Positions 7,531 through 59,332 of a stretch of DNA of 64,000 bases are shown here, piece after piece; position 1 is the first letter of the stretch, and each line of letters begins with the position of its first letter. Both the position numbers and the translations under genes were made by a program. The stretch spans positions 1,027 to 65,026 of the forward strand of contig WJIR01000026.1 in NCBI GenBank assembly GCA_014730175.1, given 5' to 3'. The stretch is from Candidatus Zixiibacteriota bacterium. Its GTDB lineage: Bacteria > Zixibacteria > MSB-5A5 > UM-FILTER-46-8. A model generated the notes under the pieces. That model was not told where the DNA came from, made no database searches, and was given only the letters and a program-made list of their open reading frames with translations.

Positions 7531-8427
7531 CTACAGCGCGTACGACAGAATATAGCCAACACCCAAAAAAAGCTGAGTCGTTAACACAGTTGCAACATTA
7601 GCCCCTTGAGCCGGTATCAGCTCCCTGAATGAGCCGTAGGTTAACGAACCGGATACCGCCTTGAGTCCGAAAGGGAGGCTCAGGAGCGCTAATAATCCCC
7701 ATACAGGTATAATATCGCTAATGACTCCGATTAATACCCATACATAAGTGAGAATAATCACAGTCGAATAAATGAACGCAGCTTTTCTATGTCCGAGAAT
7801 TATTGGAATCGTTCGGCGATTACCCGCCCGATCTGCTTCGGCATCGGGGAATTCATTCAGCAGGAGGAGATTGAAAACGAGAAAACCGGAGGGAACCGAA
7901 GCGTACAATGCTTCCCAGGCAAATCCGCCATTCAGTATATAAAAAGTACCGAATACAGGAAGCGTTCCCAGACCCAATCCAGCGGATATTTCCGCGATGC
8001 CACCTCCTAATTTTGTTATATGGCTGGTATACCAGAGTACGAAAATAGCGCCGATAATAAACAACGGCAGCAACGACCAACCTCTGGTTATTATAAAATA
8101 CACACCTATCGGAACCGCCAGTATGAAGGAGCCGATACCCAGGGCATAAGCTGACTTGGCGCTTAATGCGCCCGACGTCAGAAAACCCGATCCGCCCGAA
8201 AACGGGGTGCGTTCGGTTTTGAAATCGATTCCTGTTTTGTGGTCGCTATAATCATTTAATGTATTAACACTTGTGTGCAGCAATATCAGTCCGATAGTCA
8301 GCAGGACAAAATGCAGCAGGTCGAAAGCGCCGTTAGTTAAGGCTATAGCCATTCCGAGGAAGACCAGTATCGGCGATAGCAAGAGAAATTGTGGACGGGT
8401 TTCTAAAAACAAGAATTTAATACTCAT
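7531..8427 (-). CDS. UbiA-family prenyltransferase (MenA-like 1,4-dihydroxy-2-naphthoate polyprenyltransferase candidate)
   Basis: 298-aa membrane protein with an NDYSDHKTGID Asp-rich motif and a second DAEADR motif, as in UbiA/MenA enzymes. Confidence 0.7.
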   Translation of the reverse strand: MSIKFLFLETRPQFLLLSPILVFLGMAIALTNGAFDLLHFVLLTIGLILLHTSVNTLNDYSDHKTGIDFKTERTPFSGGSGFLTSGALSAKSAYALGIGSFILAVPIGVYFIITRGWSLLPLFIIGAIFVLWYTSHITKLGGGIAEISAGLGLGTLPVFGTFYILNGGFAWEALYASVPSGFLVFNLLLLNEFPDAEADRAGNRRTIPIILGHRKAAFIYSTVIILTYVWVLIGVISDIIPVWGLLALLSLPFGLKAVSGSLTYGSFRELIPAQGANVATVLTTQLFLGVGYILSYAL

Positions 8428-8500
8428 AATTTTCTCCTATTAGATTATAGGATTCAATATCTAATTGTCTGGAGATAAAGTCAACAACTCTTAACCCATA

Positions 8501-8656
8501 TCATTCATAAAAGCCAGTAAACCGTAGTCGAAGGCCTGTCCTTCGGGGAGTTTACAACAATAAACAATTTACAAATTGCAATTTGGAGTTTAGAAAAGAG
8601 CCGGAAGCGCAAGGCTTCCGCTACCGATTGGGAAATATATGAATAATCCAGGTTAT
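8501..8656 (+). repeat. Intergenic structured repeat, copy A (about 88% identical to 59181-59332)
   Basis: Direct alignment to copy B over about 150 bp. It contains the hairpins CGAAGG-cctgt-CCTTCG and CGGAAGC-gcaag-GCTTCCG. Confidence 0.65.
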
Positions 8657-8972
8657 AAGATTATCCGGACCGAGAGCGCAGCAAAATGTGATGCAAAAAG
8701 ATGGTTATATCTATTCTATTGTATTTCAATTAGATAAAGAGGTATTGTAACAAACAAACTCTAAATTCCTACAAGTTACAATACGGAAACGAGAAAAGAA
8801 CCAAAAACGATCAACAAGTTAACTGGTTAAATTGTAACGGATTACGATGCCTTTTTTATGAAATGGTTTTAAGTTCTGGGATTGTGAATTATTGCACCAA
8901 ATTATGGATATCAGTTAATTGCTTATCGCTCAATGTGTTGATATTCCGTTAGAAAAAAATTAGAATTGCGCT

Positions 8973-9001
8973 TGACATAATTTCGCCTGAACTCTACAAT
9001 A
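8973..9001 (+). promoter_or_regulatory. Near-consensus sigma70 promoter (TTGACA-N17-TACAAT) for thyX-nrdJ
   Basis: Hexamers and spacer read directly from the sequence. The -10 lies about 95 nt upstream of the thyX ATG at 9097. Confidence 0.55.
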
Positions 9002-9096
9002 CAAACCGCTCTGTGGCTGGAGAAAAAAGCTACATACAAACTTCGGAAAAATGGGCTTGTTATAATAGAGGTATAATTCGCTCGAAAGGAAATCTT

Positions 9097-12192: not shown

Positions 12193-12202
12193 AGCGTTTC
12201 TA

Positions 12203-12270
12203 TCCGGGATAATTCACAAAAGCCATTAACAGGTAGCTGAAGGCTTACCCGCCTCAGGAGGATTTACACA
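12203..12270 (+). repeat. Partial copy E of the intergenic repeat family (5' module)
   Basis: CCGGGATAATTCACAAAAGCCATTAACAGGTAGCTGAAGGCTTACC aligns to the 5' ends of copies A and B. Confidence 0.4.
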
Positions 12271-12404
12271 CCTCTGGCGCGAAGAGCGGGCAGGTCAGGG
12301 GATTATTTCCTGACATGGCTTCGGTGGGAATCCGAATTACTCTCTCGAGAGGGTATGTATTGCTTCGTCGCTATGCTACACTCAATGAGCGTTGAATCCG
12401 GGGG

Positions 12405-13091
12405 TTAAATTGTATCCTCCACTATCTTGCCGTAATGCATTTTCACTACTCGTTCAGCCACTCTCTCGGCAACCTCCAAATTATGCGTTACAATTATTAC
12501 AGTCAGCCCCTTCTTTTTTAGGTCCACAAGGATATCGGCAACCGCTTTAGCATTCTGCTGATCAAGATTTCCGGTAGGTTCGTCCGCAAATAAAATCTCC
12601 GGTTTTTTTACCAGAGCACGCGCAATAGCTACCCGCTGCTGTTCGCCTCCCGATAAATCCGAAGGTTTGTGTTCCATTCGATCTTCGAGCCCCAACAGTG
12701 TTAGTGTTTTTACAGCTTGTTCTTCCCTGTCTCGCTTCGATGTGTTATTGAAATAAAGAGCCATCTCTACGTTCTTCAGTGCGGTCTGATTCGGTATCAG
12801 ATTAAACGATTGAAACACCATTCCCACATATTTCGCTCGATATTGCGACAACTGCCGATGAGATAAGTTTCCGAGATTTCTCCCGGCGACTTCAATGGTT
12901 CCGGAAGTTGGGGAATCCAAACCCGCCAGCAGGTTAAGCAAGGTGGTCTTGCCGGAACCTGATGTACCAACCACAGCTACAAGCTCCTCCTTAATGACTT
13001 CCAAGGAAATGCTATCCACTGCCCTTACCTTATTTGTGCCTCGGGTATAAAAGCGGCATAGGTTGCTGGTATGTATGAATGGTCGGTCCAT
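12405..13091 (-). CDS. ABC transporter ATP-binding protein (LolD/MacB/FtsE-like), no adjacent permease
   Basis: Walker A (GTSGSGKTT), ABC signature ([15 protein letters not shown]) and Walker B are all present. Confidence 0.85.
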
Positions 13092-13305
13092 AAAGTCAAA
13101 TTAATATATCTTTTTTGACGGATATCGGTCAATAATTGTTTCCAATTTTAAAATAACCTTCACAATCCCATAGTATCCAGGTCAGCTCAACTTTCAAAGA
13201 CATGGTTGTAAACAGTCCCTGCTTTGTAGTACAGCAATTGATAATTTATTATCAATGATTACCAACTTGAAATCAGGCGCTAACAAAACTTTTACAAAAT
13301 ATCCC

Positions 13306-13334
13306 TTGACAACTGGTCAGGATTACACTATATA
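13306..13334 (+). promoter_or_regulatory. Putative sigma70 promoter (TTGACA-N17-TATATA) about 260 nt upstream of the 13593 CDS
   Basis: Hexamers read from the sequence in a 500-bp AT-rich intergenic region. Confidence 0.4.
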
Positions 13335-13529
13335 GTCCTGCGAATGACAATGAATGTCATTCTATGGTAGTAAATTTGTTGTTAAAAAACTAATTTTCAG
13401 GAACTTTATGATAAGTCGCGTTGTTGTAGCGACTGTAGTAGGTATATTTTTCTACATAAATTTTTATAATTCAAAATAGTAATAATATATATATATTATA
13501 ACATACGTATAATCATTTTTTTACTAAAA

Positions 13530-13550
13530 GTAACCATTTAAAATGGTTAC
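13530..13550 (+). promoter_or_regulatory. Perfect 21-bp palindrome (GTAACCATTT-A-AAATGGTTAC), candidate operator 40 nt upstream of the start codon
   Basis: Exact inverted repeat seen in the sequence. Confidence 0.4.
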
Positions 13551-13592
13551 ACCATTACTAAAACACAAGAAGAACAAAGGAGAAAAAAACTA

Positions 13593-15557
13593 ATGCAGAA
13601 ACAGATTGTAACCCTTATAGTTGTAGCCTTAGCTGCATTTACAATGCTATTGGCCCCTTCATCGGTATTGGCAATAGATGGGGCAAAACCAGTACCGGGC
13701 GTCGCTCCGGGTAACTATGATCCGACTGGTGTAATCGGTTCGATTGAACCTTTCGCCAGCGAAATCGGAATGATAAGTTGGTCGATCGATGGATTGGGAA
13801 CCACCGCTTCCTCAGGTATTATCAAAGTAGATAAGCCGGAAGATGCCACAGTTCGCAGCGCTTACTTTTTCTCAGCCACTACCGGTTTCACGGATTATCA
13901 GCTTCAGGACGGCGACGTTCAGTTGGAAGGCAACAACATCGTATGGGATGACGAGTTGATGAGTAGCATCGAATCGTACAACTATATGGCTGATGTTACC
14001 GATATCGTCGCTCCCATAGTCGATGCGGCTCCGGCGGGAATCGTTGAGTTGACTATCAATGAGAACAACTCTGCAAATATCGACGGCGAAGTATTGGCAG
14101 TGATATTTGATGATCCCAATGTAACCGAAACCGCTACGATAGCTTTGTTATTCGGCGCCCAGGCAATTGAAGGCGATGAATTTAATATCGGATTGGCTGA
14201 GCCGGTAACCGAGGAAACCAATGTTTATATGTCATTAGGTATTTCTTATGGTTATCAGCCTACCGAACAGGTAAGCCACATCGATGTTAATGGAGAACGT
14301 TTAACTTCCTCTGCTGGTGGCCAGGATGACGGCGAAGACAACAACGGCGCGTTGATCACAGTCGGCGGCATTGATGATAGCATGGACAATCCTCCGGATC
14401 CTTATGGCGAACCGGATACTCCAAGATACGACGATGAGTTATATACTTTGAATCCTTATCTGGAAATTGGCGAGACTTCTATAAATGTTTACACCATCAA
14501 TCCTTCGGATGATGACAATATATTCTTCGGCGCATTTCATATCTCCGGCGCTGCCGTTGTCGGTGAAGGTGCGGTGTTGACACCGGAATATGCCGAGAAG
14601 AATGTTGGCGAGATGCACATGATCACCGCTACTCTGCAGGACGATGATGGTAACCCGATCGCTGATCGCGAAATCAATTTCCACATCGTGGATGGTCCCC
14701 ATTCACCCATGGATTACACTGATGCCACAAACGAAGAAGGTAAGGCTTTCTTCGAATATGAAGGAATGATGGAAGGCAGCGATATAATTATGGCTGATTT
14801 CATCAATTCTCAGGGTGAATACCAGGAAGCTGAAAATGAAGCGGTTGTCGATTGGATTACCGGTGGAGATCTCTGTTGTGATGTAGAGCTTTCCCCGGAT
14901 GATGGCGATCCTGTCATCGTTAATCCTCCGGACATCTTCAGGTTCACTGCTACTCTGTGCAATCCCAATGAAGAACCGATCTTTACCGATTTCTGGACCG
15001 TAACCGAAAGCATGGGTGAACGTTGGGAAATCTTGGTCCATACCGATGTAGAAGTCGGCGGCGACGATTGCAGAAACGGACGCTTCATTCAGTGGATCTG
15101 CGGACAGATTGAGCCTTGCGTTTACGTCTACACTGCTTATTGCGGTGACTATGAAACCGGTGAAATCTGCGATTCCGCCAGTTTCGAAGTAGTTGTCTTA
15201 AACGGTGAAGGAATCACTAATATGGGTAATGTTGAAGAGCTGTGGCTCTCTGAAGGAGGCTTCAATAGCGAAGAATTCGCGATGGAATCCCCGGCCGAAT
15301 ACACCTTAAGCTCCAACTATCCAAATCCGTTTAACGCTCAGACCAACATCAGCTTCTCCCTACCCGAAGCCGGTAATGTTCGTTTGAACGTTTATAACTT
15401 ACTCGGACAGAATGTAGCTACTCTGGTTGATGGTAATATGTCTGCCGGCCAGCATACTGTAAACTGGGATGCTGCCAATCATGCCAGCGGCGTATACCTT
15501 TACAAACTGCAAGCTAACGATCAGGTAATCACCAAGAAGATGCATCTGCTGAAGTAA
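13593..15557 (+). CDS. Secreted T9SS cargo protein with shared Cys-rich domain and C-terminal T9SS sorting domain
   Basis: Signal peptide (LAPSSVLA), a Cys-rich module (CCDVELSPDDGDPVIV...AYCGD...CD), and a T9SS CTD (NYPNPFNAQT...LNVYNLLGQ...VNWDA...SGVYLYKL). Confidence 0.8.
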   Translation: MQKQIVTLIVVALAAFTMLLAPSSVLAIDGAKPVPGVAPGNYDPTGVIGSIEPFASEIGMISWSIDGLGTTASSGIIKVDKPEDATVRSAYFFSATTGFTDYQLQDGDVQLEGNNIVWDDELMSSIESYNYMADVTDIVAPIVDAAPAGIVELTINENNSANIDGEVLAVIFDDPNVTETATIALLFGAQAIEGDEFNIGLAEPVTEETNVYMSLGISYGYQPTEQVSHIDVNGERLTSSAGGQDDGEDNNGALITVGGIDDSMDNPPDPYGEPDTPRYDDELYTLNPYLEIGETSINVYTINPSDDDNIFFGAFHISGAAVVGEGAVLTPEYAEKNVGEMHMITATLQDDDGNPIADREINFHIVDGPHSPMDYTDATNEEGKAFFEYEGMMEGSDIIMADFINSQGEYQEAENEAVVDWITGGDLCCDVELSPDDGDPVIVNPPDIFRFTATLCNPNEEPIFTDFWTVTESMGERWEILVHTDVEVGGDDCRNGRFIQWICGQIEPCVYVYTAYCGDYETGEICDSASFEVVVLNGEGITNMGNVEELWLSEGGFNSEEFAMESPAEYTLSSNYPNPFNAQTNISFSLPEAGNVRLNVYNLLGQNVATLVDGNMSAGQHTVNWDAANHASGVYLYKLQANDQVITKKMHLLK

Positions 15558-15614
15558 TTATAACAGCAAAACTCTCGAGGAAGGAAATGTACCTACCTCG
15601 AGGAAGAAAGTTGA

Positions 15615-15645
15615 GCGCCGGGCAGCACGTCCGGCGCTTTTTATT
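15615..15645 (+). terminator. Rho-independent terminator (GCGCCGG-loop-CCGGCGC followed by TTTTTATT)
   Basis: GC stem plus T-run 58 nt after the stop of the 13593-15557 gene. Confidence 0.65.
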
Positions 15646-15756
15646 GCCTTTGAAAATAGCAGTTAACTTTAACTCATATCATTAGCTAATAATTTTGCCA
15701 GTTGTCAAAAATCGATTTTGTATTATATTGCCTTTGAATAATCTTCTTTATGAAAG

Positions 15757-18339
15757 GTGGTAAAAATGCACAGGTTACTGATGATTTTAATATTCTTTAC
15801 GCCCCTGCTATCATTCGCAGGAAATATCGATCCCAACGGCGATATTCCCTTGCATAGAATTTTAGCCGAACGAGGGCAAACGGTAGATGAGATACTCGCG
15901 CAAAATACATTTGATTTTTCGCAGAATGATATTGATCCCGGTGAAATTCCGGAGGGCGATTACCTGGGATGGTTGGCTTTCACGCCAGATGGCGAGAGAA
16001 TACTGGTAACTAATCGAGTAACGGATAATGTAACGGTATTTGATTGGTCAACTATGGAAGTGTTGACCAATATCAATGTGGGTACTTATCCGGGTGGAAT
16101 CGGTGTAACCGATAATTATGCAGTGATCGCCTGTGCTTTTAGCGATGAAGTATACATTATCGATTTGGATGATTACAGCGTTGCCGGCATATTCGAAACC
16201 GGCGAGCAGCCCTGGGTGGTGAGGATAAGTCCCGACGGTAGAAAAGCTTATGTTGCCTGCGATATCGATAATGTCTGCGAAGTAATAGATTTGGAGAACT
16301 TAATCCACACGGACACATTAGAAGATTTCCCGATCTGGTTGGTGAGTTGGGGATTTAATTCCGAAAATGCACGTAATACTTTTAGTTTTTCTCCGTTTGA
16401 GATTACGCCGGACGGGAATCATATAATGGTAAGCGATGGCGAAACGAATGTTCATTTTATAAATGTTGATACCGGCAACATAGATTACACGGTTGAAGGA
16501 ATCGAAAGCTGCTGGACATTAGGCCTATCCGGTGACGGTTCAAAATCAGTTGCGGTTAGTTCTACTGATCCTGCTGTAGCATATCAGATCGACCTCACCA
16601 CATATCAAGTCACAGGAAGTGTAAGCATAAGCGGATACAGGTTAAGTACTTATGAAGTTGCCGTTAATCAGGATGGTTCCAAAGCTTTCCTGGGGATAAA
16701 CAACAACTCCAGCGCATTCGTTCGATTCGAGACCTCTGATTTCACGGTTTTGACACAAACATATACACCATTCTGGATCGGAGTATCACCGGATCATTCT
16801 TTGGCAATTGGAGGGCAGTATCGCTTTTCGATCCTTGATTTCGAAACCGAGACTTTGCTGGGGCAATACCAGGGTAATTCTCAGTATTACGGAGCGGTAT
16901 CCAAGGTTGGATTGCGCGCGGTGGGACATGATCCATATCGCCATGAAGGTGTTTATTTCTACGATTACACCGATGATTATCCCGATTATCTGGGGACAAC
17001 CAATTCCGGACTGGACCCCGAAGGCGACGCTCCCAGACGATTAGCGATAGCGCCGGATGGGTCTAAAGTGGTTGCCGCTAATGTTCTTTCCGATAATATT
17101 TCCATTATAAGTCTGAGTACGTATGAAGTTGAAGCTATCCTACCGATCGGCGACAGAGTGCAAAATGTTGCTATCACTTCGGATTCACGCTGGGCGGTAG
17201 TGTGTGGATTCAATTCCAATTCCGTATTTATCATTGACCTTGAAACCAATACAATAGCAGCGGAAGTTTCGGCAGGTTCTCGCGCTGGCGTTGTTAGCAT
17301 AGCTCCCGATGACAGCTATGCCTATGTTGGTAATATATCAGCTAATACTTTATCGGTCATAGAATTGGATGGGGAAAACAGTTTTGAATATAATGAGTTA
17401 CCTATCGGTGTAATTGGTGTGGTCTGGGCGGCGTTTGGTGTCAGCAGCGATGTTGAATACAGCCCCGATGGCGAACATGTTCTGGCGACTGCCTCATTCG
17501 ACGACCTTGTTTACGTATTCGATACCGAATTCCACGAAATAGTCGCCACACTTCCCACCGGGGATTTTCCGATTCAGATAGCGTTTGACGGAACCGGTGA
17601 ATATGCGGTAGTAACCAATTACTTCACTGATAATTTCACATTGATGCATATCGATGGTGAGAATTCGACCTCAATCGGAACATATTACAGTGGCGATGCT
17701 CCATTAAGGCTGGCATATAATTCTATTTTGGACGAAATAGGTATCTGTAACTACAGCGATAAAACCCTGGTAAACATCGATCCTCAAACCGGAGATCTTA
17801 TTGACACCGACTATTATACTAACCACGGCAGTTTGATTCAGGCGATGTTCGATGAGAACGGAGAGCCAATCGTTCTTGTAAGCAGCGGAAATCTACCTGC
17901 GGCGTTGATCAAAGCCGATGATGTGGTTGAGATGCCTGCCGGTCCGACATACTTCGATTATAACAGAGAGGCTCAGGTGGCTGCCGTTTCCATGCCGGGA
18001 CCCGATTTTGTAACTATCGTCAGTTGGCAGGAAACCGGAATAGGCGAGGTGAAGGATATCGATTTAAACTTACCGACAGAAATAGCCATCGGAGACTGTT
18101 ATCCCAATCCATTCAACCCGGAGGTGAATATCGAGTTTCATCTGCCGACTGCCGGTGATATTTCTTTGCGGGTGCTCAACCTTACCGGTGAAAAGGTAGT
18201 AACGTTGGCTGAAGGGAATTATACCGCAGGATCGCATAGAATCCTTTGGGATGCCTCCGATCTTGCCAGCGGCATATATTTACTTAAATTGAGCAACGGA
18301 TCGATATCTACAACCAAGAGGATCACATACATAAAGTAA
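15757..18339 (+). CDS. Secreted beta-propeller repeat protein (YVTN/lactonase-like repeats) with T9SS C-terminal sorting domain
   Basis: Signal peptide, repeated roughly 40-aa DGSK/DG..AYV repeats, and a C-terminal CYPNPFNPEVNIEF...VLNLTGE...WDASDLASGIYLLKL T9SS CTD. Confidence 0.8.
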   Translation: MVKMHRLLMILIFFTPLLSFAGNIDPNGDIPLHRILAERGQTVDEILAQNTFDFSQNDIDPGEIPEGDYLGWLAFTPDGERILVTNRVTDNVTVFDWSTMEVLTNINVGTYPGGIGVTDNYAVIACAFSDEVYIIDLDDYSVAGIFETGEQPWVVRISPDGRKAYVACDIDNVCEVIDLENLIHTDTLEDFPIWLVSWGFNSENARNTFSFSPFEITPDGNHIMVSDGETNVHFINVDTGNIDYTVEGIESCWTLGLSGDGSKSVAVSSTDPAVAYQIDLTTYQVTGSVSISGYRLSTYEVAVNQDGSKAFLGINNNSSAFVRFETSDFTVLTQTYTPFWIGVSPDHSLAIGGQYRFSILDFETETLLGQYQGNSQYYGAVSKVGLRAVGHDPYRHEGVYFYDYTDDYPDYLGTTNSGLDPEGDAPRRLAIAPDGSKVVAANVLSDNISIISLSTYEVEAILPIGDRVQNVAITSDSRWAVVCGFNSNSVFIIDLETNTIAAEVSAGSRAGVVSIAPDDSYAYVGNISANTLSVIELDGENSFEYNELPIGVIGVVWAAFGVSSDVEYSPDGEHVLATASFDDLVYVFDTEFHEIVATLPTGDFPIQIAFDGTGEYAVVTNYFTDNFTLMHIDGENSTSIGTYYSGDAPLRLAYNSILDEIGICNYSDKTLVNIDPQTGDLIDTDYYTNHGSLIQAMFDENGEPIVLVSSGNLPAALIKADDVVEMPAGPTYFDYNREAQVAAVSMPGPDFVTIVSWQETGIGEVKDIDLNLPTEIAIGDCYPNPFNPEVNIEFHLPTAGDISLRVLNLTGEKVVTLAEGNYTAGSHRILWDASDLASGIYLLKLSNGSISTTKRITYIK

Positions 18340-18491
18340 TAAGAGATGGCTGCAGGTCACCGGCGCTATCCCCACGCATACCGTCAGCGTTCCAGGGCTG
18401 CCCGGCGGACTCTTAAGTTAAAATAATCTGCAGCGTACCATGAATGATGCAGGACGGGCTGAAACCCGTCGTAATTAAAAATAGTGATCCT

Positions 18492-18511
18492 CCCCGCGTT
18501 AAAACGCGGGG
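18492..18511. terminator. Hairpin CCCCGCG-ttaaaa-CGCGGGG between convergent genes
   Basis: Inverted repeat seen in the sequence; no clear U-tract follows it. Confidence 0.35.
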
Positions 18512-18550
18512 TCTCAAAAACTCATCCAGGCTTTTCCTTTTTGTTAATAG

Positions 18551-18576
18551 CTTGGCGGGAGGAAACTCCCGCCAAG
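18551..18576. terminator. 11-bp stem hairpin with GAAA tetraloop (CTTGGCGGGAG-gaaa-CTCCCGCCAAG); probable bidirectional terminator
   Basis: Perfect inverted repeat 22 nt from the stop of the minus-strand 18598 gene, with T/A-rich flanks. Confidence 0.5.
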
Positions 18577-18597
18577 CATTTTGAGCCTTAATTTACT

Positions 18598-20154
18598 CTA
18601 TTTGAGTAGTGTGATTTGCTTTGCGATTACCTTATCCCCGGCTCTGAGCCTGTAGAAATAAAGACCGCTCGAATAACCGGAAGCATCCCAGTTGACACTA
18701 TGGTATCCAGCTTGCATATAGCTGTCTGCAAGTGTTTCAACTTCCTGACCGAGCAGATTATAAATCGAAAGTTTAACATTTGTATCGGAAGGAAGATTGA
18801 ATCGTATATTGGCTGAAGCGTTGAACGGATTGGGGTAACTTTCCATAGACATCGCATTCGGTGTTTCCGCTTGTTGCTGAGAATTCCATCCACCACTCAA
18901 TGTCCAATCGGAGCTCCCGCCATTGCGAGGAGCGCCTATCACATTGAAGTCGAACATAGCCGTATCACAGGCAACGTTGCTCTTCTCCCCGCAGAATGCT
19001 ATATAGTCATACGTACCGGTAGGCGCATAATTGGGAACCTGTTGAACCAGATGGGCATCCAGAGTCTGGCCGATATCAACGAAAGTACCGGAGAAATCCC
19101 AAAGTTCATAAAATTCGCCTTGGAAGTTCACCCCGACCCAGATATCGGTTATCATCGGTTCATCGTCAGGATTGACGATTATTCCGGTCAACCCGAACTC
19201 TCCACCCGGGGGAACATCGACCGGATAGTTATCAGGAATCATATCCACCTGAGGGCAGACATCACATTGAACCGGTCCGTACTCGCTCAATTTAGTATCT
19301 ACATCCGCAGAAGTAGTTGTTACCGTGCTGTCAGGAATATAGAAGTCCATTGTCATCGTATCAGGCCAAGTTCCGAATGTCAGCGTACCGTTCTCATCGA
19401 GAATTAGGTCGAGATCGGCAAAATCACCGGTTGCTTCATATCCATCACCAGTATTGATAACTCCGCCTTCGAACACTATCAACGTATCAGTGTCCCAGGC
19501 AACCTTCGCGACAATATTAGCGGTATCCGAACCATAAATTCCCTGATCCGGATCGTTTAACGCGGTAAGGCTAAATTCGTCAAAATAAAACCTTGCCTGC
19601 AAATGAAGACTGTCCTGCACCTCGCTATCTTTCTCCTCGTCTCTCCATTCGGTCGATCCTTGAAACTTCGCCTCTCCTTCGGCATCCGCCTCGCATCTGG
19701 AAGCATAGGTGAAAAGATTGTGATCCACCTTACCTACCAAGCGATCACTATCTTCCCCAAATTCTTCCCACCATGCCTTTACATAGGCGTATGCGCGCGC
19801 CGCGTGCGTACAGGGGAACGGCCCTTCTTCGGATTCAGCGATTACATCAGGGAAATACGCTTCATCATCGCCGGAGCCGGAAGCGCCGCAACACCAGTAA
19901 CCTGCATCAGCCCATGCGTATGTTTCCGCAATCGGGTCTGGTCCTTCAAGTATCGACCATATTCCGACTCCGATTCCAACGACAGTCACCGTGATAGCAA
20001 CAACTGTTAATACTGCCGGTTCTTCGCCATCATTTTGAGTTTCCGGAAGTTCGTGCTGATGTGGCTGCGATGCCAGAGCAATGTCCGGAGCGGTAATTGC
20101 TCCGCACAAAAACACAATCACGAGCAGCGACAAAAGATAAATGTTCTTTTTCAT
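18598..20154 (-). CDS. Secreted T9SS cargo protein with shared Cys-rich domain and T9SS sorting domain
   Basis: Signal peptide (MKKNIYLLSLLVIVFLCGAITA), a Cys-rich module (CDVCPQVDMIPDNYPVDVPPGG...AFCGE...CD), and a CTD (SYPNPFNASANIRF...SIYNLLGQ). Confidence 0.8.
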   Translation of the reverse strand: MKKNIYLLSLLVIVFLCGAITAPDIALASQPHQHELPETQNDGEEPAVLTVVAITVTVVGIGVGIWSILEGPDPIAETYAWADAGYWCCGASGSGDDEAYFPDVIAESEEGPFPCTHAARAYAYVKAWWEEFGEDSDRLVGKVDHNLFTYASRCEADAEGEAKFQGSTEWRDEEKDSEVQDSLHLQARFYFDEFSLTALNDPDQGIYGSDTANIVAKVAWDTDTLIVFEGGVINTGDGYEATGDFADLDLILDENGTLTFGTWPDTMTMDFYIPDSTVTTTSADVDTKLSEYGPVQCDVCPQVDMIPDNYPVDVPPGGEFGLTGIIVNPDDEPMITDIWVGVNFQGEFYELWDFSGTFVDIGQTLDAHLVQQVPNYAPTGTYDYIAFCGEKSNVACDTAMFDFNVIGAPRNGGSSDWTLSGGWNSQQQAETPNAMSMESYPNPFNASANIRFNLPSDTNVKLSIYNLLGQEVETLADSYMQAGYHSVNWDASGYSSGLYFYRLRAGDKVIAKQITLLK

Positions 20155-20634
20155 TTTACTCTCCTTGCTTGGATTTTTATTTCTCAGAATCAGGTTCTAT
20201 ATAAACAAGGTGGGTAACCTCCTCGTTACAAATCACGAATCCCGACTAATATTGTAAACTATAAAAATAAGAACCGATTGTCAACAAATAAAATAATTTA
20301 TGTTATTTATATAATCGGCGAGAGGGTATTGGAGGAAAATAGTTTCACTAACATCCTGTTAAGAAGTTATTAATGTTCGCGATTCGGACTATGACGATTC
20401 CACTCCATGATAGTATACAGGAGAGAGATAATGAAATATAGGGGGATTATGATAATGGCCATGATGAAGAATAACGGTTCATCGCTTCCATGCGCATCAA
20501 AGTAGGACTTGAATGTTCCGTAAATGAAATCGTGAAGGATTACCGCCACATTCCAGGCAGCTATGATCAGCAGGATTCTCTTCCAGGCTTACAGCAGATA
20601 TTTTCCATAGAATCTCCTCGTTACAGCCGCATTG

Positions 20635-21186
20635 TTAATTCCGCGGAGATCTTCTGTGTTCCCTTCGCCATTTATAGGGCGGAATAAATTCTTTGACCTC
20701 TGAATTCTCAGCCGTCTCCAGTATTCGCTCCGCGAGTTCCGGGAATCCGTTATCGCCATAGTATGAAACAGTCTCATAAGCCAGTCCCGCTTCGATCAAT
20801 TGTATGGAGAGCAGCTCCCCATCCACGAACACGTGCGCCAGCATTCTACCATAACGATCATCTTGATAAGGTAAATATGAGATCACCTCCGCATTATGGA
20901 GTAAAGCCGCCGTATAAGCGGACGCTTCTCTCCCAAAGGATTGATCCTCGTGGAATCCATGTTCTGGATGCGAAATCTCAGGCGTATCCATACCCAGTAC
21001 CCTTATCCCCTTGCCCCTGTACTCGAAAGTATCGCCATCATCGAGTATTATCTCCGATTTCTCGATCAAGATCACCTCCGATCCATCAGGTATGAATACT
21101 ATATCCTTTTTAACTGGCGATCCGCAGGAACTGAATATTATGGAGACAATAAGCAGGATAAATATTTGTTTGGAAATTATCTTCAT
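20635..21186 (-). CDS. Thermonuclease (staphylococcal-nuclease-like, SNase) lipoprotein
   Basis: Lipobox IFSSCGS after the ATG at 21186. The SNase core contains GKGIRVLGMDTPE...FGREA...RMLAHVFVDGELL. Confidence 0.7.
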   Translation of the reverse strand: MKIISKQIFILLIVSIIFSSCGSPVKKDIVFIPDGSEVILIEKSEIILDDGDTFEYRGKGIRVLGMDTPEISHPEHGFHEDQSFGREASAYTAALLHNAEVISYLPYQDDRYGRMLAHVFVDGELLSIQLIEAGLAYETVSYYGDNGFPELAERILETAENSEVKEFIPPYKWRREHRRSPRN

Positions 21187-21315
21187 TCTTTTCCTCGATT
21201 GAACACACTCTTTGATTGTAATTAACGGGCAATATAATGCCCTCACGGAAGGAGGCAAAATAAAAAGAGGAGGGAATTAGAAATCCCTCCTCCTGCAAAT
21301 AGATCTGTATTCTTT

Positions 21316-24279
21316 CTATTTCAACAAAGTCATCCGTTTGGTGAATACCTTATCCCCTGCAGTAAGTTTATAGAAGTATACTCCGCTGGAATAGTTAGAG
21401 GCATCCCAGGCTACCGAATGCTCTCCGGCATCATTGTATCCGTCAAACAATGTTGCCACGTGCCGTCCTGCGAGATTGTACACGTCCAATTTCACGTTCG
21501 CACTCTTAGGTAAGGTATAAGTGATGCTGGTCTGAGCATTGAACGGATTCGGGTAGTTTCCGACCAATGAATATTGCGAGGGAACGGGTTCACCGATAAA
21601 GTCGCCTTCCAAAAACCAGCTATCAGCGGGATTGTTCGTCAAGGCACCGGAAACCGTGAAATCGAATTGCACCGAATCACACTTATCATCCGGACGATCA
21701 CCGCAATAGGCAATGTAAATGTAAGATCCCTGTGGAGCGAATCCCGGTACTTGCTGGTTGGTATGAGCGTTTAGGGTCTGTCCCGGAGCGAGAGAGAGAT
21801 TATTATAACCGAACTGCTGATAAAAATCTCCATCGTGAATGACTCCGCCCCAGACATCGGTTGTAATAGATGTGTCGCAAACATTGCCGATAAAGCCAGT
21901 CAAACCGAAACTGCCGCCCGGCGGTACTATAACCGGATCATCATCGGGGATCATGTCAACATCGCAGCAGCAATCAGGCTGGGGTAGCTCCCATGTAATT
22001 ACGACATCGTCAACATACCATCCGTCTCGGTTAGTCGAGGAATTCGTATCCAGCCTGAACCTCAGGAGAAAGTCTGTAACACCAGCGAAACTGTCAAGAG
22101 AGTGTATCGCCTGTACAAATGATTCCTGCGTGCCGGTTATGGAGCTGCCGATCTGCGTCCAGTTGTTACCGCCATCATCGGAGCCCTCGATGTAAATATA
22201 ATCGGAACCGCTCTGGAGATTATAGCGATGATAGAATGATAGTTGAATGTTCGACGCATCGGTGAAATCCAATCCCGCTTTCATCGCCATCCAGCAGTCC
22301 GCATTATTAGCGTAGTTCCCTTGCGGGCTGTCATGAAAAGCGAGATTACCGGAATTGGAATGTGTTGCCGATAATCCCCATCTATCATTATTACCACCGG
22401 TTTCCCAGTTGAAGGGACCATTTTCGAAATCATCGACAAACTGTGGAGTGGATGCTTCGGTAATGAACCTGTTATTAGGCGCTCCCACCGGATAAACCTC
22501 ACTCAGCCCATTAGTCTTTTCGGCGTAAACATAGTAATAAACAGATTCACCCATTCCCGGTGTTGGGATGTCAGCCGAGTATGTATCCTGATTATTGGTC
22601 ATCTGGATGGAATTGTAATTCTGAGAACCGTTGTGATTCCAGTAAAGAGTCACGCTGGAAGGATTAATTCCCTCCGAACTGGTTATCTCTCCCGAAAAAT
22701 AAGCTTCGTTAAGTGGAGCCACGTAGGGAAGAGGAACCATGTCGAAGACGATATCCCCTTCCGGATGATAAAATATCGCTTTGGTGGTATTAACCACGCC
22801 CCATCCGTAAGTATTATTTGGGCTGTCCGTATTATCCGCGGTCGCCATCAAAGCCTCACGCACCATCATCGGGGTCCAGTTGGGATGAGCCGAAAGTACC
22901 GCACCTGCGCTTCCGCCCACCAACGGTGTTGAAAGTGATGTGCCACTGGCGTCAGTGAATCCGCCGAGGTCATACGGGTTAGCGCAATCGGTGTCAACGC
23001 CTCGAGCAGTCACTTCAGGCTTAGTGCGATCGTCGTAGGTGGGACCGCGCGAGGAAAAACTGGCTATCTCGCCTTCGGAGTTGACCGCGCCGCAGGCAAT
23101 AACGCTATCCCCGTCGGCAGGAGCAATTAGCGAACCGTTACCCATCCAGCCTTCATTGCCCATTGCTGTGCAGACTGCTATACCATTATATGCGGCGAGG
23201 TCTGCGGCAATCGTAACAATCGTTGTGTTACCATCGAGATCGGAATACTCGTAATCTCCCTGGCCTTCATCGAACCAACGGTAACCGAGTGAGGCTGAAA
23301 TCACTTGTGCCCCGATGGAATCCGCCCACAGAGCGGCAGCAGCCCAGTGATCCTCTTCAATATGCCTTTCCTGGGAAACATCCTCGGTTTTTCCCAGCAG
23401 GAACTCCGCATTAAAGGAGGGACCGTAAAGAGAACCGGAATACTCGCCGCCCAGCGCTGACCAGGTCAAAGTTCCATGGTTTGGCTGATCCCAGGGATCG
23501 CCGTTTTCCCAATCGGTGTCCCCATCGCCCATTACGAAATCCCATTCCGCAATCAAGCGGTTGTCATTGAATATCTCATCGAATGCTACATGACCTTTGC
23601 GGTAACCGGTGTCGAGCATGCAGATAATCACGCCGGTTCCGTCGAATCCCAGCTCATGAGCCGGAGGAACATTTATCTGAAGTAGCTGCGATTCCGAAGG
23701 TCCATAATTGTAGCTGTAATCGCTGATATCGCCGAATCTCGAATATCTATCAGCGCCCTCGATCCTGTCTATCTCTTTCCCCAGCGCCTTTACCCTCTCT
23801 ATTCTCCGAACGAAAGGCAAGGATGAAATAGCCTCAATATTCCCTGTATCGATGTATGCGGAGACAGCGTTCAACCATTTTACGCGGTGCACTATTTCCG
23901 CACCTGAGTTTTCTGTCTCGTTAACATATTCATTATTCACAGGCAGATCGAGAAAATCGACAAGATTATCTCCACGTGTTTTAGCGCGCCTCTTTAACGC
24001 AGCTTCGGTAAGTGCATTCTCAGCTTCAGCCAAAGCATTATCCAGCTCATGCTGAGATGATATTCCCTTGTCCGTGAAATAAATCCAGACCTTTACTCTT
24101 TCGGTATCGAATTTATCAAGTAATTGAGGTTCGATAACCTGCTCAGATTTGGGAAGATAGAGTTTTCTCTGGGGTGCGGCTTTATCTGCGGAAAAACCAG
24201 CGGATGCCGCCCATGTTATTGAAAGCAGCATAATAACTAATATGACACTCCAGCGAGAACATGACATATTTTTGAACAT
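21316..24279 (-). CDS. Secreted subtilisin-like serine protease (peptidase S8) with shared Cys-rich domain and T9SS sorting domain
   Basis: Catalytic triad motifs DTGY (Asp), HGTLT (His) and GTSLSTP (Ser). A signal peptide, the CCCDVDMIPDDDPVIV...AYCGD module and the NYPNPFNAQTSITY...VYNLAGR CTD are also present. Confidence 0.9.
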   Translation of the reverse strand: MFKNMSCSRWSVILVIMLLSITWAASAGFSADKAAPQRKLYLPKSEQVIEPQLLDKFDTERVKVWIYFTDKGISSQHELDNALAEAENALTEAALKRRAKTRGDNLVDFLDLPVNNEYVNETENSGAEIVHRVKWLNAVSAYIDTGNIEAISSLPFVRRIERVKALGKEIDRIEGADRYSRFGDISDYSYNYGPSESQLLQINVPPAHELGFDGTGVIICMLDTGYRKGHVAFDEIFNDNRLIAEWDFVMGDGDTDWENGDPWDQPNHGTLTWSALGGEYSGSLYGPSFNAEFLLGKTEDVSQERHIEEDHWAAAALWADSIGAQVISASLGYRWFDEGQGDYEYSDLDGNTTIVTIAADLAAYNGIAVCTAMGNEGWMGNGSLIAPADGDSVIACGAVNSEGEIASFSSRGPTYDDRTKPEVTARGVDTDCANPYDLGGFTDASGTSLSTPLVGGSAGAVLSAHPNWTPMMVREALMATADNTDSPNNTYGWGVVNTTKAIFYHPEGDIVFDMVPLPYVAPLNEAYFSGEITSSEGINPSSVTLYWNHNGSQNYNSIQMTNNQDTYSADIPTPGMGESVYYYVYAEKTNGLSEVYPVGAPNNRFITEASTPQFVDDFENGPFNWETGGNNDRWGLSATHSNSGNLAFHDSPQGNYANNADCWMAMKAGLDFTDASNIQLSFYHRYNLQSGSDYIYIEGSDDGGNNWTQIGSSITGTQESFVQAIHSLDSFAGVTDFLLRFRLDTNSSTNRDGWYVDDVVITWELPQPDCCCDVDMIPDDDPVIVPPGGSFGLTGFIGNVCDTSITTDVWGGVIHDGDFYQQFGYNNLSLAPGQTLNAHTNQQVPGFAPQGSYIYIAYCGDRPDDKCDSVQFDFTVSGALTNNPADSWFLEGDFIGEPVPSQYSLVGNYPNPFNAQTSITYTLPKSANVKLDVYNLAGRHVATLFDGYNDAGEHSVAWDASNYSSGVYFYKLTAGDKVFTKRMTLLK

Positions 24280-26463: not shown

Positions 26464-27621
26464 ATGAGACACACGGTTTTTACAGTACTGTGTTGCCTGA
26501 TTATATATGGGTGCGGTAACGCAATGCAGGTGATTGATTTCGAAGGACTACCGGATTATTATTATTATTACGGGGGTAATGAGAATATCGATGGTTACTA
26601 TCCCGGGCTTGAGTTCGGACCACACGCAGTGATACTGGACAGCGTTATCTACGGATATAATTCCGAAGGATACCCACCTCATTCCGGTAACTGCGTCCTG
26701 GCGACAATCGGCGCTTCCTATACGCGAGTTGATTTCTCTATTCATACCAATCATGTCGGAATGTGGTACACTTCGTATTTTACCTTTCATGTTGAAGCGT
26801 ACGATGGCAATGATAATCTTTTAGTTTCCACTACGGCTCCCGCAAATTACGGAAGCACAGATTTTGTCGAGGTGAATTCGGTAGGGATTGCTTATGTTAT
26901 ATATCATAATTCGGGAGATCTATTCGTTATCGATGATTTCGAATACGAGGATGAGCCCTGCTGTCTGGATATCGATATGGAGCCGGACGAAGACCCGGTA
27001 ATTGTCAGCCCGGGGGAATCATTCTGGTTTACCGGCTCTATTTTAAATATGTGTGTATATCCGGTCGTGACGGATATCTGGTTGATGGTGGATGTTCCCG
27101 GATATGGACTGTATGGTCCCCTGGCAAGAAACCTTAATCAAACCGTAGAACCCGGGCAGATCTTGACCCGCCACATGGCTCAAGCGGTTCCCCTCGAAGC
27201 TCAACCGGGTGTCTATAGTTATGTCGCTTATTGTGGTGATTTCCCGAATTATCTGTGTGATGGAACTTCGTTTCCATTTACGATTGTAGAAGGTTCGTCA
27301 TCAGAAGGCAGCAGCACATGGCATAATAGAACCGCTTTTGATTTCAAGGCGGCTCCCGATAAATCAAGTCTGATGGACAGTTACCCCAATCCTTTCAATT
27401 CCCGAACAAACATCCAATTCGAGCTAAGCTCCGAATGTCATGCACGACTGGAGATTTATAACATGTTGGGGCAAAGAATAACGGTTCTTGTAGACGAATA
27501 CTTAAATGCAGGTGAGTACTCGGTGCAATGGGATGCGGGCGACCTTCCCAGCGGCATTTATCTGGCAAGACTTTATGAGGATGGCAAGACTACTACCGTT
27601 CGGATGAGTTTAATAAAGTGA
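26464..27621 (+). CDS. Secreted T9SS cargo (lipo)protein with shared Cys-rich domain and T9SS sorting domain
   Basis: Signal/lipobox (LIIYGCGNA), a Cys-rich module (CCLDIDMEPDEDPVIV...AYCGD...CD), and a CTD (SYPNPFNSRTNIQF...IYNMLGQ). Confidence 0.8.
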   Translation: MRHTVFTVLCCLIIYGCGNAMQVIDFEGLPDYYYYYGGNENIDGYYPGLEFGPHAVILDSVIYGYNSEGYPPHSGNCVLATIGASYTRVDFSIHTNHVGMWYTSYFTFHVEAYDGNDNLLVSTTAPANYGSTDFVEVNSVGIAYVIYHNSGDLFVIDDFEYEDEPCCLDIDMEPDEDPVIVSPGESFWFTGSILNMCVYPVVTDIWLMVDVPGYGLYGPLARNLNQTVEPGQILTRHMAQAVPLEAQPGVYSYVAYCGDFPNYLCDGTSFPFTIVEGSSSEGSSTWHNRTAFDFKAAPDKSSLMDSYPNPFNSRTNIQFELSSECHARLEIYNMLGQRITVLVDEYLNAGEYSVQWDAGDLPSGIYLARLYEDGKTTTVRMSLIK

Positions 27622-27638: not shown

Positions 27639-28613
27639 TTACTTTAACACAGGTCTGGGTGAATGCTCAGCACCAACTGAATCCGGTTTTCCTGATTTCG
27701 CAAGATAATCAGAAACGGTGGAGAAATTGAACTCCGAGAAAAGCTTTCGTAATTTTGGCAACGTTGTATGAAGGTTGGTATAATGCCGGAACCTGCTGTT
27801 AAGGCTACTGCGGATTTTGGGCTGGTGCGGATCAACTTCCCAGGGATGTACATATACTACCGACGGTATCAACCTTTCGTTTAACTTGCGAATAATCCTT
27901 CTTGTGAACCAGTAAGGGAATAGCCGGAGATAACCTCCGCCAGCCGCCGCAATGCGCGTGTTAAAAAATTTCGTGGTTGTTGCCGGTATCTCTGTGATGT
28001 ACTCACCGCATTTCAGTTCCACATCGAATATAGTAGCGGGGGCGCTTTGGAAACCATACCGGTCATGCTTTATAGGGAAAACGCTGGATGAGTAGGTAAA
28101 GCCGAGTTCATGGAGAATGTCCCATGCCCATTGAGACTTTTCAACAATCGAAAAACTGGGCGCTCGGTAACCTTTAACCGCGCTGCCGGTAATCTCTTCG
28201 AGAATCGCTTTGGCTTTCATAGTGTCTTCACGAAATTCGTCCGGAGACAGGTTGTATATAAGGCGATGAGCGTAGCTGTGGCATCCAACTTCATGTCCCC
28301 TGTTGTGTATTAAAAGAACTATTTCCGGAAATCGTTCTGCAATCCATCCCAGGATGAAAAAAGTGGCTTTTATATCATAGTCATCCAGCAACTTCAGTAG
28401 TAGGCTGGTATTAGAAATCACCCTGCTCTCGAATTTATCCCAATCGGCTCGATTAACTTCATTTGCAAAACCGTTAACATGAAAATAATCCTCGACATCG
28501 ACGGTGAACATATTTGTGAATCCGGAACGCGACGCTCTGCCGGTATATGGGCCTGGGGAGTTACGTTGATATAATGATTCAGTAGTCTGCTTACTATGGT
28601 TGTTCTTATTCAT
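27639..28613 (-). CDS. Polysaccharide deacetylase (NodB-homology; resembles the FTVDVEDYFHV N-terminus of the PEP-CTERM-locus subfamily)
   Basis: The MFTVDVEDYFHV motif and a NodB-type fold signature are present. The true start may be the internal Met at residue 35. Confidence 0.7.
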   Translation of the reverse strand: MNKNNHSKQTTESLYQRNSPGPYTGRASRSGFTNMFTVDVEDYFHVNGFANEVNRADWDKFESRVISNTSLLLKLLDDYDIKATFFILGWIAERFPEIVLLIHNRGHEVGCHSYAHRLIYNLSPDEFREDTMKAKAILEEITGSAVKGYRAPSFSIVEKSQWAWDILHELGFTYSSSVFPIKHDRYGFQSAPATIFDVELKCGEYITEIPATTTKFFNTRIAAAGGGYLRLFPYWFTRRIIRKLNERLIPSVVYVHPWEVDPHQPKIRSSLNSRFRHYTNLHTTLPKLRKLFSEFNFSTVSDYLAKSGKPDSVGAEHSPRPVLK

Positions 28614-28689
28614 ACAATTTCTTAGTCTGTATCATTCAAAAGTTTTAACATCGGTAGCTAAAGGTTTAAGCGCCTCAGGCGTACTTGTG

Positions 28690-28805
28690 CTTCCAACGTC
28701 TGTTTGTGATCTTCAATTCCAATCCGCAAATGATCTAATTCCATTAAATCCCCGAAGGACAAGCTTTCGGTTACCGAATTGTGGTTTTCATGAATTATCC
28801 GGATT
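28690..28805 (-). repeat. Copy F of the intergenic repeat family, inverted orientation
   Basis: TTAAATCCCCGAAGGACAAGCTTTCGGTTACCGAATTGTGGTTTTCATGAATTATCCGG is the reverse complement of the 5' module of copies A and B. Confidence 0.5.
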
Positions 28806-54164: not shown

Positions 54165-54350
54165 AATTTAGCCCGTATATTTGACAAACAGATGGTTTAG
54201 ATGCCGAAGGCTTGTCCTTCGGGACCGGAATAGCAATCAAGCGAGCTTTCCAAGGTTCTAAAGTCAGTCTATCTGTCTTCACGGACAGATAAAGTCCCTT
54301 TTCCGGTTTCCGCGGGGCTTCGCTTGATTCTGCGGAGAGTAGTAGTGTAA
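54165..54350 (+). repeat. Structured intergenic element C, related to the repeat family (shares AGCCCGTATA and the CCGAAGG-cttgt-CCTTCGG hairpin)
   Basis: The core hairpin is identical to copy B. Additional nested inverted repeats are AATCAAGCGA/TCGCTTGATT and TATCTGTC/GACAGATA. Confidence 0.45.
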
Positions 54351-54914: not shown

Positions 54915-54959
54915 CCGAATCCGTAAAGACTATTAGCCGGTACTATTCAATGAATGAGT

Positions 54960-55090
54960 AGCCCAAGGCTTGCTCTTCGGTGAGTGACATGTTAAACAGC
55001 CGTAGCCCGGGTTTCCCCGACAAATCGGGGCAAGCGGAGAAACCCGACAAGCATTACCTGATGCGGCATAAAACGTCCTCGTTTTACGCT
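54960..55090 (+). repeat. Structured intergenic element D, related to the repeat family (CCGTAGCC and GAGAAACCCGAC modules)
   Basis: Nested hairpin GGGTTTC(CCCCGA-caaa-TCGGGG)...GAAACCC. The GAGAAACCCGAC module is shared with 59138-59152. Confidence 0.4.
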
Positions 55091-55231
55091 ACCGTCCAAA
55101 TTTCCGCATGTTTTCTTCAAAAATCCTGAAACAGATTTTACCCAAACATAATTATAGCAATTACGTATCAAATATCTATATTTGAATATACTAAATTCGC
55201 AGGCATTTTAATTCCTAAAACAGGAGATATA

Positions 55232-59170: not shown

Positions 59171-59332
59171 TAGCCCGTATAATTCATAAAAGCCAGCAAA
59201 CCGTAGCCGAAGGCTTGTCCTTCGGGGATTTTACAACAATAACAATTTACGGTCTGGAATTCGGGGGCGAGAAAAGAGCCGGAAGCGCAAGGCTTCCGCT
59301 ACCGATTAGGGACTTTATGGATAATCCGGGCT
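59171..59332 (+). repeat. Intergenic structured repeat, copy B (about 88% identical to 8501-8656)
   Basis: Direct alignment to copy A. Hairpins are CCGAAGG-cttgt-CCTTCGG and CGGAAGC-gcaag-GCTTCCG. The copy abuts the stop of the minus-strand permease gene. Confidence 0.65.

Follow-up and report, generated by a model that had tools for sequence, protein, structure and literature searches.

Two similar repeats and their relatives in the window

The window, by which we mean the whole 64-kb stretch of DNA from an uncultured Zixibacteria metagenome-assembled genome (MAG) that was analyzed, carries two closely similar repeats in its intergenic regions. The first, copy A, occupies the divergent spacer between a gene of the UbiA family (7531-8427, minus strand) and thyX (plus strand), and the second, copy B, the convergent spacer between the genes for an M16 peptidase (plus strand) and an OpuAC/permease protein (minus strand). 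An earlier note on this DNA had reported both repeats, and BLASTN recovers them at the same places and aligns them end to end, with Pfam matches confirming the gene contexts given for each. Their identity, estimated in that note at about 88%, was measured at 84-85% (84.4-84.8% across 164-167 nt, E = 7.5e-48 to 2e-48), the alignment comprising two gap-free segments that are 89% and 82% identical. The location that had been assigned to them stands, but their extent does not: the homology begins 7-8 nt further 5', and the repeats with their boundaries so revised are bracketed by TA dinucleotides (Table 1).

Copies A and B are the sole long direct repeats that a repeat finder returns in the window, and they were the only ones previously noted. 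With sensitive BLASTN and a covariance model built from four copies (CM R1) added to the repeat finder, the window total comes to four copies (A, B, C, and E) plus fragments, namely fragment F and a doubtful relic G. Copy C, between a DUF2085 gene and the start of a polysaccharide deacetylase gene, shows 62-64% identity to A and B and has its hairpin 2 extended by 19 nt. No ORF of at least 40 aa overlaps A or B, and those that overlap C are not common to the other copies. Variant E, situated in a convergent spacer past the RNR terminator, has family-type ends (2 of 19 positions mismatched in its 5' inverted repeat), the family's left arm, and hairpin 1, followed by a different and longer core; because it scores only 8.3 bits against the full CM R1, we base its membership on the ends and the left arm. 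Fragment F scores 17.4 bits against CM R1 (E = 0.019), with a 21/21 match to hairpin 1, and relic G is recognized only by a 26-nt BLAST match (85%, E = 0.009-0.016), with no hit from CM R1.

Table 1. Positions of the repeat copies and their hairpins in the window and in contigs of the sister genome.
Feature	Position	Strand	Description
Copy A	8494-8653	+	MITE copy, 160 nt; TA at 8492-8493 and 8654-8655; CM R1 178.8 bits
Hairpin 1, copy A	8529-8545	+	CGAAGG-CCTGT-CCTTCG; left arm; perfect
Hairpin 2, copy A	8602-8620	+	CGGAAGC-GCAAG-GCTTCCG; mirror image of hairpin 1; perfect
Copy B	59173-59331	+	MITE copy, 159 nt; TA at 59171-59172 and 59332-59333; CM R1 179 bits
Hairpins 1 and 2, copy B	59208-59224 and 59280-59298		Perfect
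Copy C	28625-28805	minus	MITE copy, 181 nt; diverged; flanks CA and TA; CM R1 145.2 bits
Copy E	12203-12405	+	Variant, 203 nt; TA at 12201-12202 and 12406-12407
Fragment F	54169-54230	+	Probable, weak evidence; 5' end (TA-GCCCGTATATTTGAC) and hairpin 1, then unrelated sequence
Relic G	~54945-55095	+	Doubtful, degenerate; GTAGCC-CAAGGCTTGCTCTTCGG ... ACGCTACCG
Copy H	L007:19931-20091	minus	Sister genome
Copy I	L015:4942-5103		Sister locus

A second repeat family, considered for sequence beside copy B and inside relic G, was not supported. At window positions 54230-54340, 3' of fragment F, there are short inverted repeats (AATCAAGCG/CGCTTGATT, TATCTGTC/GACAGATA, and ACCGGAA/TTCCGGT), which are not nested as a single hairpin and which lie just 5' of a 118-aa ORF for which Pfam gave no match.

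The element is a quasi-palindrome with terminal inverted repeats

Seven full copies were compared across two genomes (A, B, C, and E from the window, and D, H, and I from a sister genome considered below), with the ends of the element set where the similarity among the copies stops; the full copies are 159-203 nt in size. From the end inward, each arm is made up of the terminal repeat, a GTAGC/GCTAC box, and one GC-rich hairpin, and the left arm is an imperfect inverted copy of the right. The terminal inverted repeats (5'-RCCCGGATAATTCAT... and ...ATGAATAATCCGGGY-3') are imperfect, with a conserved internal A.A or C.A mismatch, and in the terminal stem 83% of cells pair across five copies. The two perfect hairpins attributed to A and B in the earlier note are present in both; across the same number of copies, hairpin 1 is paired in 97% of cells, with no covariation among them.

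The mirror symmetry extends to the hairpin loops (CTTGT versus CTTGC on the opposite strand) and likewise to the flanking boxes. Between the two 65-nt arms, identity amounts to 56-67% in six copies, falling to 51% for variant E, and similarity to the self-reverse-complement lies 3-5 sd above shuffles in six of the seven copies, copy C being less than 1 sd above. The reverse strands also fit the covariance model, at 61-81 bits for A, B, D, H, and I and 38 bits for C; the element is therefore a quasi-palindrome with terminal inverted repeats.

Filled and empty sites in a sister genome

The ribonucleotide reductase (RNR) and M16 peptidase encoded in the window match, at 100% identity, proteins from a MAG of "candidate division Zixibacteria bacterium". 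The MAG GCA_964563085.1 encodes an RNR 96% identical to that of the window, and its contig L007 shows synteny to window positions 700-29400; accordingly, we treat it as a sister genome. This assembly (contigs L002, L007, and L015) is labelled 'uncultured Ignavibacteria bacterium', a label that looks wrong given the 88-96% protein identity and the gene order that it has in common with the Zixibacteria MAG of the window. It contains three further full copies of the repeat (D, H, and I), all at sites other than those of the window copies, and the sister loci in total hold these three and one partial copy.

Copy A is missing exactly from the orthologous, collinear UbiA-thyX spacer in four sister assemblies (L007, L008, L009, and L010), and a covariance-model search of that spacer in all four found no copy. 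The filled site in the window reads ...CAACAACTC-TTA-[ACCC...CCAGG, 160 nt]-TTA-TAAGATTATCC, its left flank ending in CTC and its right one starting with TAAG, and the empty site in L007 and L008 reads ...CAACAATTC-TTA-TAAGATTATTC, with the left flank ending in TTC and the right again starting with TAAG; the empty site thus has one TTA versus two in the filled site. The part of the spacer 3' of copy A (8656-9012, 357 nt) is 80% identical to its sister counterpart over its full length. Copy C is also absent from the orthologous L007 spacer. Copy H provides a pair in the other direction: it sits at the 3' end of the sister gene for a polysaccharide deacetylase/DUF3473 protein, where the window has an 18-nt spacer and an intact gene. 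There (L007:20065-20091 versus window 27639-27680) it falls within a Leu codon located two codons ahead of the stop, altering the C-terminus of the deacetylase from ...PVLK* to ...PILSRIIHKTH*. Judging from this comparison of sequences, we take the precise filled and empty sites between sister genomes, with pairs obtained for A, C, and H, to be decisive evidence for mobility.

No orthologous position holds a copy in both genomes. Identity within a genome is 84% between A and B and 80-87% among D, H, and I, and identity between genomes is 62-75%; this higher likeness within than between genomes, along with the lack of orthologous sites, fits a separate amplification in each lineage. The element also seems to break assemblies of the sister population, as two short-read metagenome contigs, L013 (positions 1-32) and L016 (positions 1-38), both begin inside a copy, which is expected for an assembly-breaking repeat.

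Several further observations concern these sister contigs. The stretch L013:1-32 comprises the 3' end of the element and lies upstream of the same M16 gene as relic G. After the RNR terminator, the sequence of L007 differs from that of the window. Just past this terminator, L007:11330-11471, which is the position equivalent to that of copy E, gives a weak covariance-model match on both strands (14.7 and 11 bits) and may be a decayed or an unrelated palindromic element. In the same region (window 12405-21300 versus L007:11250-12385), the sister contig, although syntenic elsewhere, lacks a stretch of about 9 kb that the window has and at whose left edge copy E lies; this window-only stretch codes for an ABC-transporter ATPase and three proteins that carry C-terminal sorting domains for type IX secretion. 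Many secreted-protein genes with C-terminal Por_Secre_tail domains (type IX secretion) are found at window 13593-24279 and 26464-27621 and at L002:2649-4322, and their tails are alike enough to cross-match in TBLASTX.

In public collections, a scan with the exact pattern TGTCCTTCGGGGA-N62-92-GCTACCGAT, which is too strict in that copies H and I fail it, yielded one true match (copy D) and one chance match in GTDB genomes, only four chance matches in JGI metagenomes, and no match in viral contigs. Plasmids and phages, searched by BLASTN, gave no match either, and about 85 kb from more distant Zixibacteria (72-76% marker-protein identity) contained no copies.

A MITE with TA target-site duplication

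TA dinucleotides bracket six of the seven full copies (TA...TA), the seventh, copy C, being flanked by CA...TA; the sequences beyond the flanking TA are mutually unrelated among the copies, and the target conforms to YTAR in five of the seven. Filled and empty sites of the same pattern would also be expected if the element itself carried a single terminal TA. Overall, the element is small, non-coding, bounded by terminal inverted repeats, associated with a TA duplication, and present as dispersed copies with insertion polymorphism. These traits match the published profile of bacterial miniature elements (MITEs), which are less than 200 bp in length and non-coding, with terminal inverted repeats, 5'-TA-3' termini, and a target-site duplication, as exemplified by Correia, ERIC, and RUP, the last of which has been linked to IS630-Spn1 (PMC2229807), and we count this match in favor of a MITE. 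Of the two options that the earlier note had offered, a REP/MITE-like mobile repeat or a small RNA gene, the mobile one is borne out by the filled and empty sites, the TA flanks, and the terminal inverted repeats with their mirror symmetry, in MITE-like rather than REP-like form, and the small RNA is not. We accordingly hold with considerable confidence that the element is not a new RNA gene but a non-autonomous MITE with TA target-site duplication, whose copies are recent insertions into TA sites of this uncultured Zixibacteria genome.

Such an element would be moved in trans. A transposase encoded elsewhere in the genome would bind both ends of the element, excise or copy it, and insert it at a TA dinucleotide, which would thereby become duplicated, with one TA on each side. 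The TA duplication and YTAR-like targets would point to a DDE transposase, and the mover is most likely one of the IS630/Tc1-mariner type. We infer both this family and its cut-and-paste chemistry, with the TA duplication as the single basis for the IS630 assignment, since no partner was found: neither the window nor the 20 fetched loci contain a longer insertion sequence with the same ends, and neither the ORFs of the window nor the gene tables of the fetched loci include a transposase domain.

Alternative explanations for the element

The alternative closest to the above posits the same kind of element, moved not by a transposase of the IS630 type but by an IS5/PIF-Harbinger-like one, with a 3-bp duplication (YTA). 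Four copies do carry identical triplets on both sides (TTA/TTA in A and D, CTA/CTA in B and H), and the empty site of A suits a duplication of TA or TTA alike. However, the triplets do not agree in E (CTA/TTA), I (ATA/TTA), or C (GCA/CTA), leaving a fit in four of seven copies against six of seven for TA. Furthermore, with YTA the left end becomes one base longer than the right, whereas the TA reading gives symmetric ends, and a preference for a pyrimidine before the TA would make the four matches unsurprising. In light of the limited fit and the unequal ends we rejected the YTA duplication in favor of TA and keep it as a minor and rather unlikely rival.

Less probable still is a REPIN/BIME-like doublet, in which a RAYT, a Y1 transposase of the IS200/IS605 type, would move two inverted REP units, each a GTAG with a GC-rich palindrome, in single-stranded form and leave no true target duplication. 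The arms of A and B indeed have GTAG(Y) directly before the GC-rich hairpin, with a mirrored hairpin-CTAC on the other arm, and the whole element can be folded into one long hairpin. A terminal TA owned by the element could also mimic a duplication. Against this, GTAG is found only in A and B, its place being taken by GCAG in D, H, and I and by GTAA in C, and TA is present on both sides in six of the seven copies. Moreover, the mobile unit continues for about 35 nt past the hairpins in either direction, terminating in AT-rich inverted repeats that abut the TA, an anatomy that is that of a DDE-type element and not of 20-40-nt REPs, and Y1-transposase domains are absent from the window and the sister loci.

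We consider it highly improbable that the copies are functional paralogs of a structured small RNA gene or cis-regulatory RNA whose structure is under selection. What could suggest this is the pairing of about 84% of cells in a multi-stem model versus 30-45% in slid controls, together with two-sided changes from UA to CG in the GTAGC/GCTAC box (copy H) and from AU to GC at the terminal pair (A/B), several G-U pairs on the plus strand, and the co-orientation of C and F with transcription in tandem gene contexts. However, pairing hairpin 1 with hairpin 2 as an extended palindrome gives an equally good fit (84.8% versus 84.0%), which indicates that the pairing simply reflects the inverted-repeat design, and the same model is matched by the reverse strand. 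Tests using RNAalifold and pair counting on 4-5 copies detected no significant covariation, with these two incompatible pairings fitting equally: 86-121 of 500 shuffles reach the observed covariation score and number of two-sided changes (three). Thus, the compensatory changes in the hairpin arms, to which the earlier note had looked for a decision on an RNA, do not rise above shuffled controls, and this essentially speaks against one.

Other features of the copies likewise argue against an RNA. Fold energies give z = -1.2, -1.8, and +0.7 for copies A, B, and C, with no stability beyond that of shuffles; there is no promoter-like site in or beside the copies and no plus-strand terminator-like site at their 3' end. 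The Rfam search that the earlier note had also put forward returned no match at gathering thresholds across the whole window, and at E<=10 only noise, in the form of chance-level snoRNA matches (E 4-8) around copy A and none around copy C. The presence or absence of copies between sister genomes with a TA duplication, the placement of copy H within a coding sequence, and a 1-nt deletion that breaks hairpin 1 of copy I are equally at odds with a conserved RNA. Finally, a palindrome-associated element derived from IS200/IS605, with asymmetric ends, subterminal hairpins on one strand, and no terminal inverted repeats, does not fit the mirror-image hairpins, loops, and boxes or the inverted-repeat ends.

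Relationship to known bacterial repeats

The MITE proposed here has parallels in several described families. RUP, the 107-bp MITE that is linked to IS630-Spn1 in Streptococcus pneumoniae, is also small, non-coding, and intergenic, with terminal inverted repeats and many dispersed copies, and it inserts at TA with TA at both termini, an in-trans transposase being presumed for both (PMC2229807). It differs in having no sequence similarity to the Zixibacteria element, which is longer (~160 nt), with a long imperfect arm symmetry and a GC-rich hairpin in each arm, and which occurs in uncultured Zixibacteria; further, the ends of RUP resemble those of a known insertion sequence, whereas no partner was found for the Zixibacteria element.

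The Correia/NEMIS elements of Neisseria are comparable in size (~100-200 bp), in their terminal inverted repeats, TA termini, and target-site duplication, in their strain-specific presence or absence, in their placement beside or inside gene ends, and in their potential to act on transcription (PMC2229807; PMC10969869). Their own distinctive features are terminal inverted repeats of 24 bp, an IHF site, processing by RNase III, and promoters that have been proven, whereas no copy of the Zixibacteria element contains a promoter-like site and only A and B have terminator-like hairpins. The ERIC/IRU elements of enterobacteria are imperfect palindromes of ~127-160 bp that are likewise intergenic, with TA termini and a target-site duplication, and are often situated at the 3' ends of genes (PMC2229807); they have no sequence similarity to the Zixibacteria element, and an orientation-dependent effect on mRNA stability has been shown for ERIC experimentally. 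The resemblance to the RAYT-moved REP/REPIN sequences lies in the intergenic location, the two inverted GC-rich hairpins, and the GTAG box beside the hairpin in some copies, as against which the element described here has AT-rich terminal inverted repeats ending at a duplicated TA, a GTAG that is not conserved, and no RAYT gene seen in the window or the sister loci. Our search of the literature found no report of MITEs in Zixibacteria, and the element is a new family of a well-known kind of bacterial repeat, opening no new kind of mechanism.

Effects at gene ends and implications

Next to the TA, the terminal base of the element is a pyrimidine on one strand, and at the opposite end it is mostly A or G, so that an insertion hitting the TA of a stop codon would restore TAA or TAG. 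In the window, two minus-strand stop codons are each made up of a flanking TA and the last base of the element, namely the TAG of the OpuAC/permease gene at copy B (59331-59333) and the TAA of an ABC-transporter gene at copy E (12405-12407). Both B and E thus appear to have landed in a stop-codon TA and to have restored a stop.

On the minus strand, hairpin 2 of both A and B is followed by a T-run (GCTCTTTTCT) and passed a scan for terminator-like sites; in copy B the hairpin lies 33 nt past the stop of the converging OpuAC gene, for which the hairpin and T-run of this type might act as a terminator. A conserved terminator function was rejected, as the feature is confined to the antisense strand in A and B, and copies C, D, and H have no terminator-like hairpin with a T-run. 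We see only a slim chance that the element has additionally been co-opted as a gene-end module, with an intrinsic terminator in the A/B subfamily, or alternatively that its transposase is not a classical IS630. If it were a gene-end module, the family would spread as a harmless or useful addition to the 3' ends of genes that converge.

In annotation, mobile repeat is the proper label for these stretches, not candidate small-RNA gene or riboswitch. The repeats also explain contig breaks and local losses of synteny in Zixibacteria metagenome bins. With respect to the biology of the organisms, the family supplies cases in which an insertion overlaps a stop codon or alters the C-terminus of a protein, serves as a marker separating two closely related populations, and shows recent transposon activity in an uncultured phylum.
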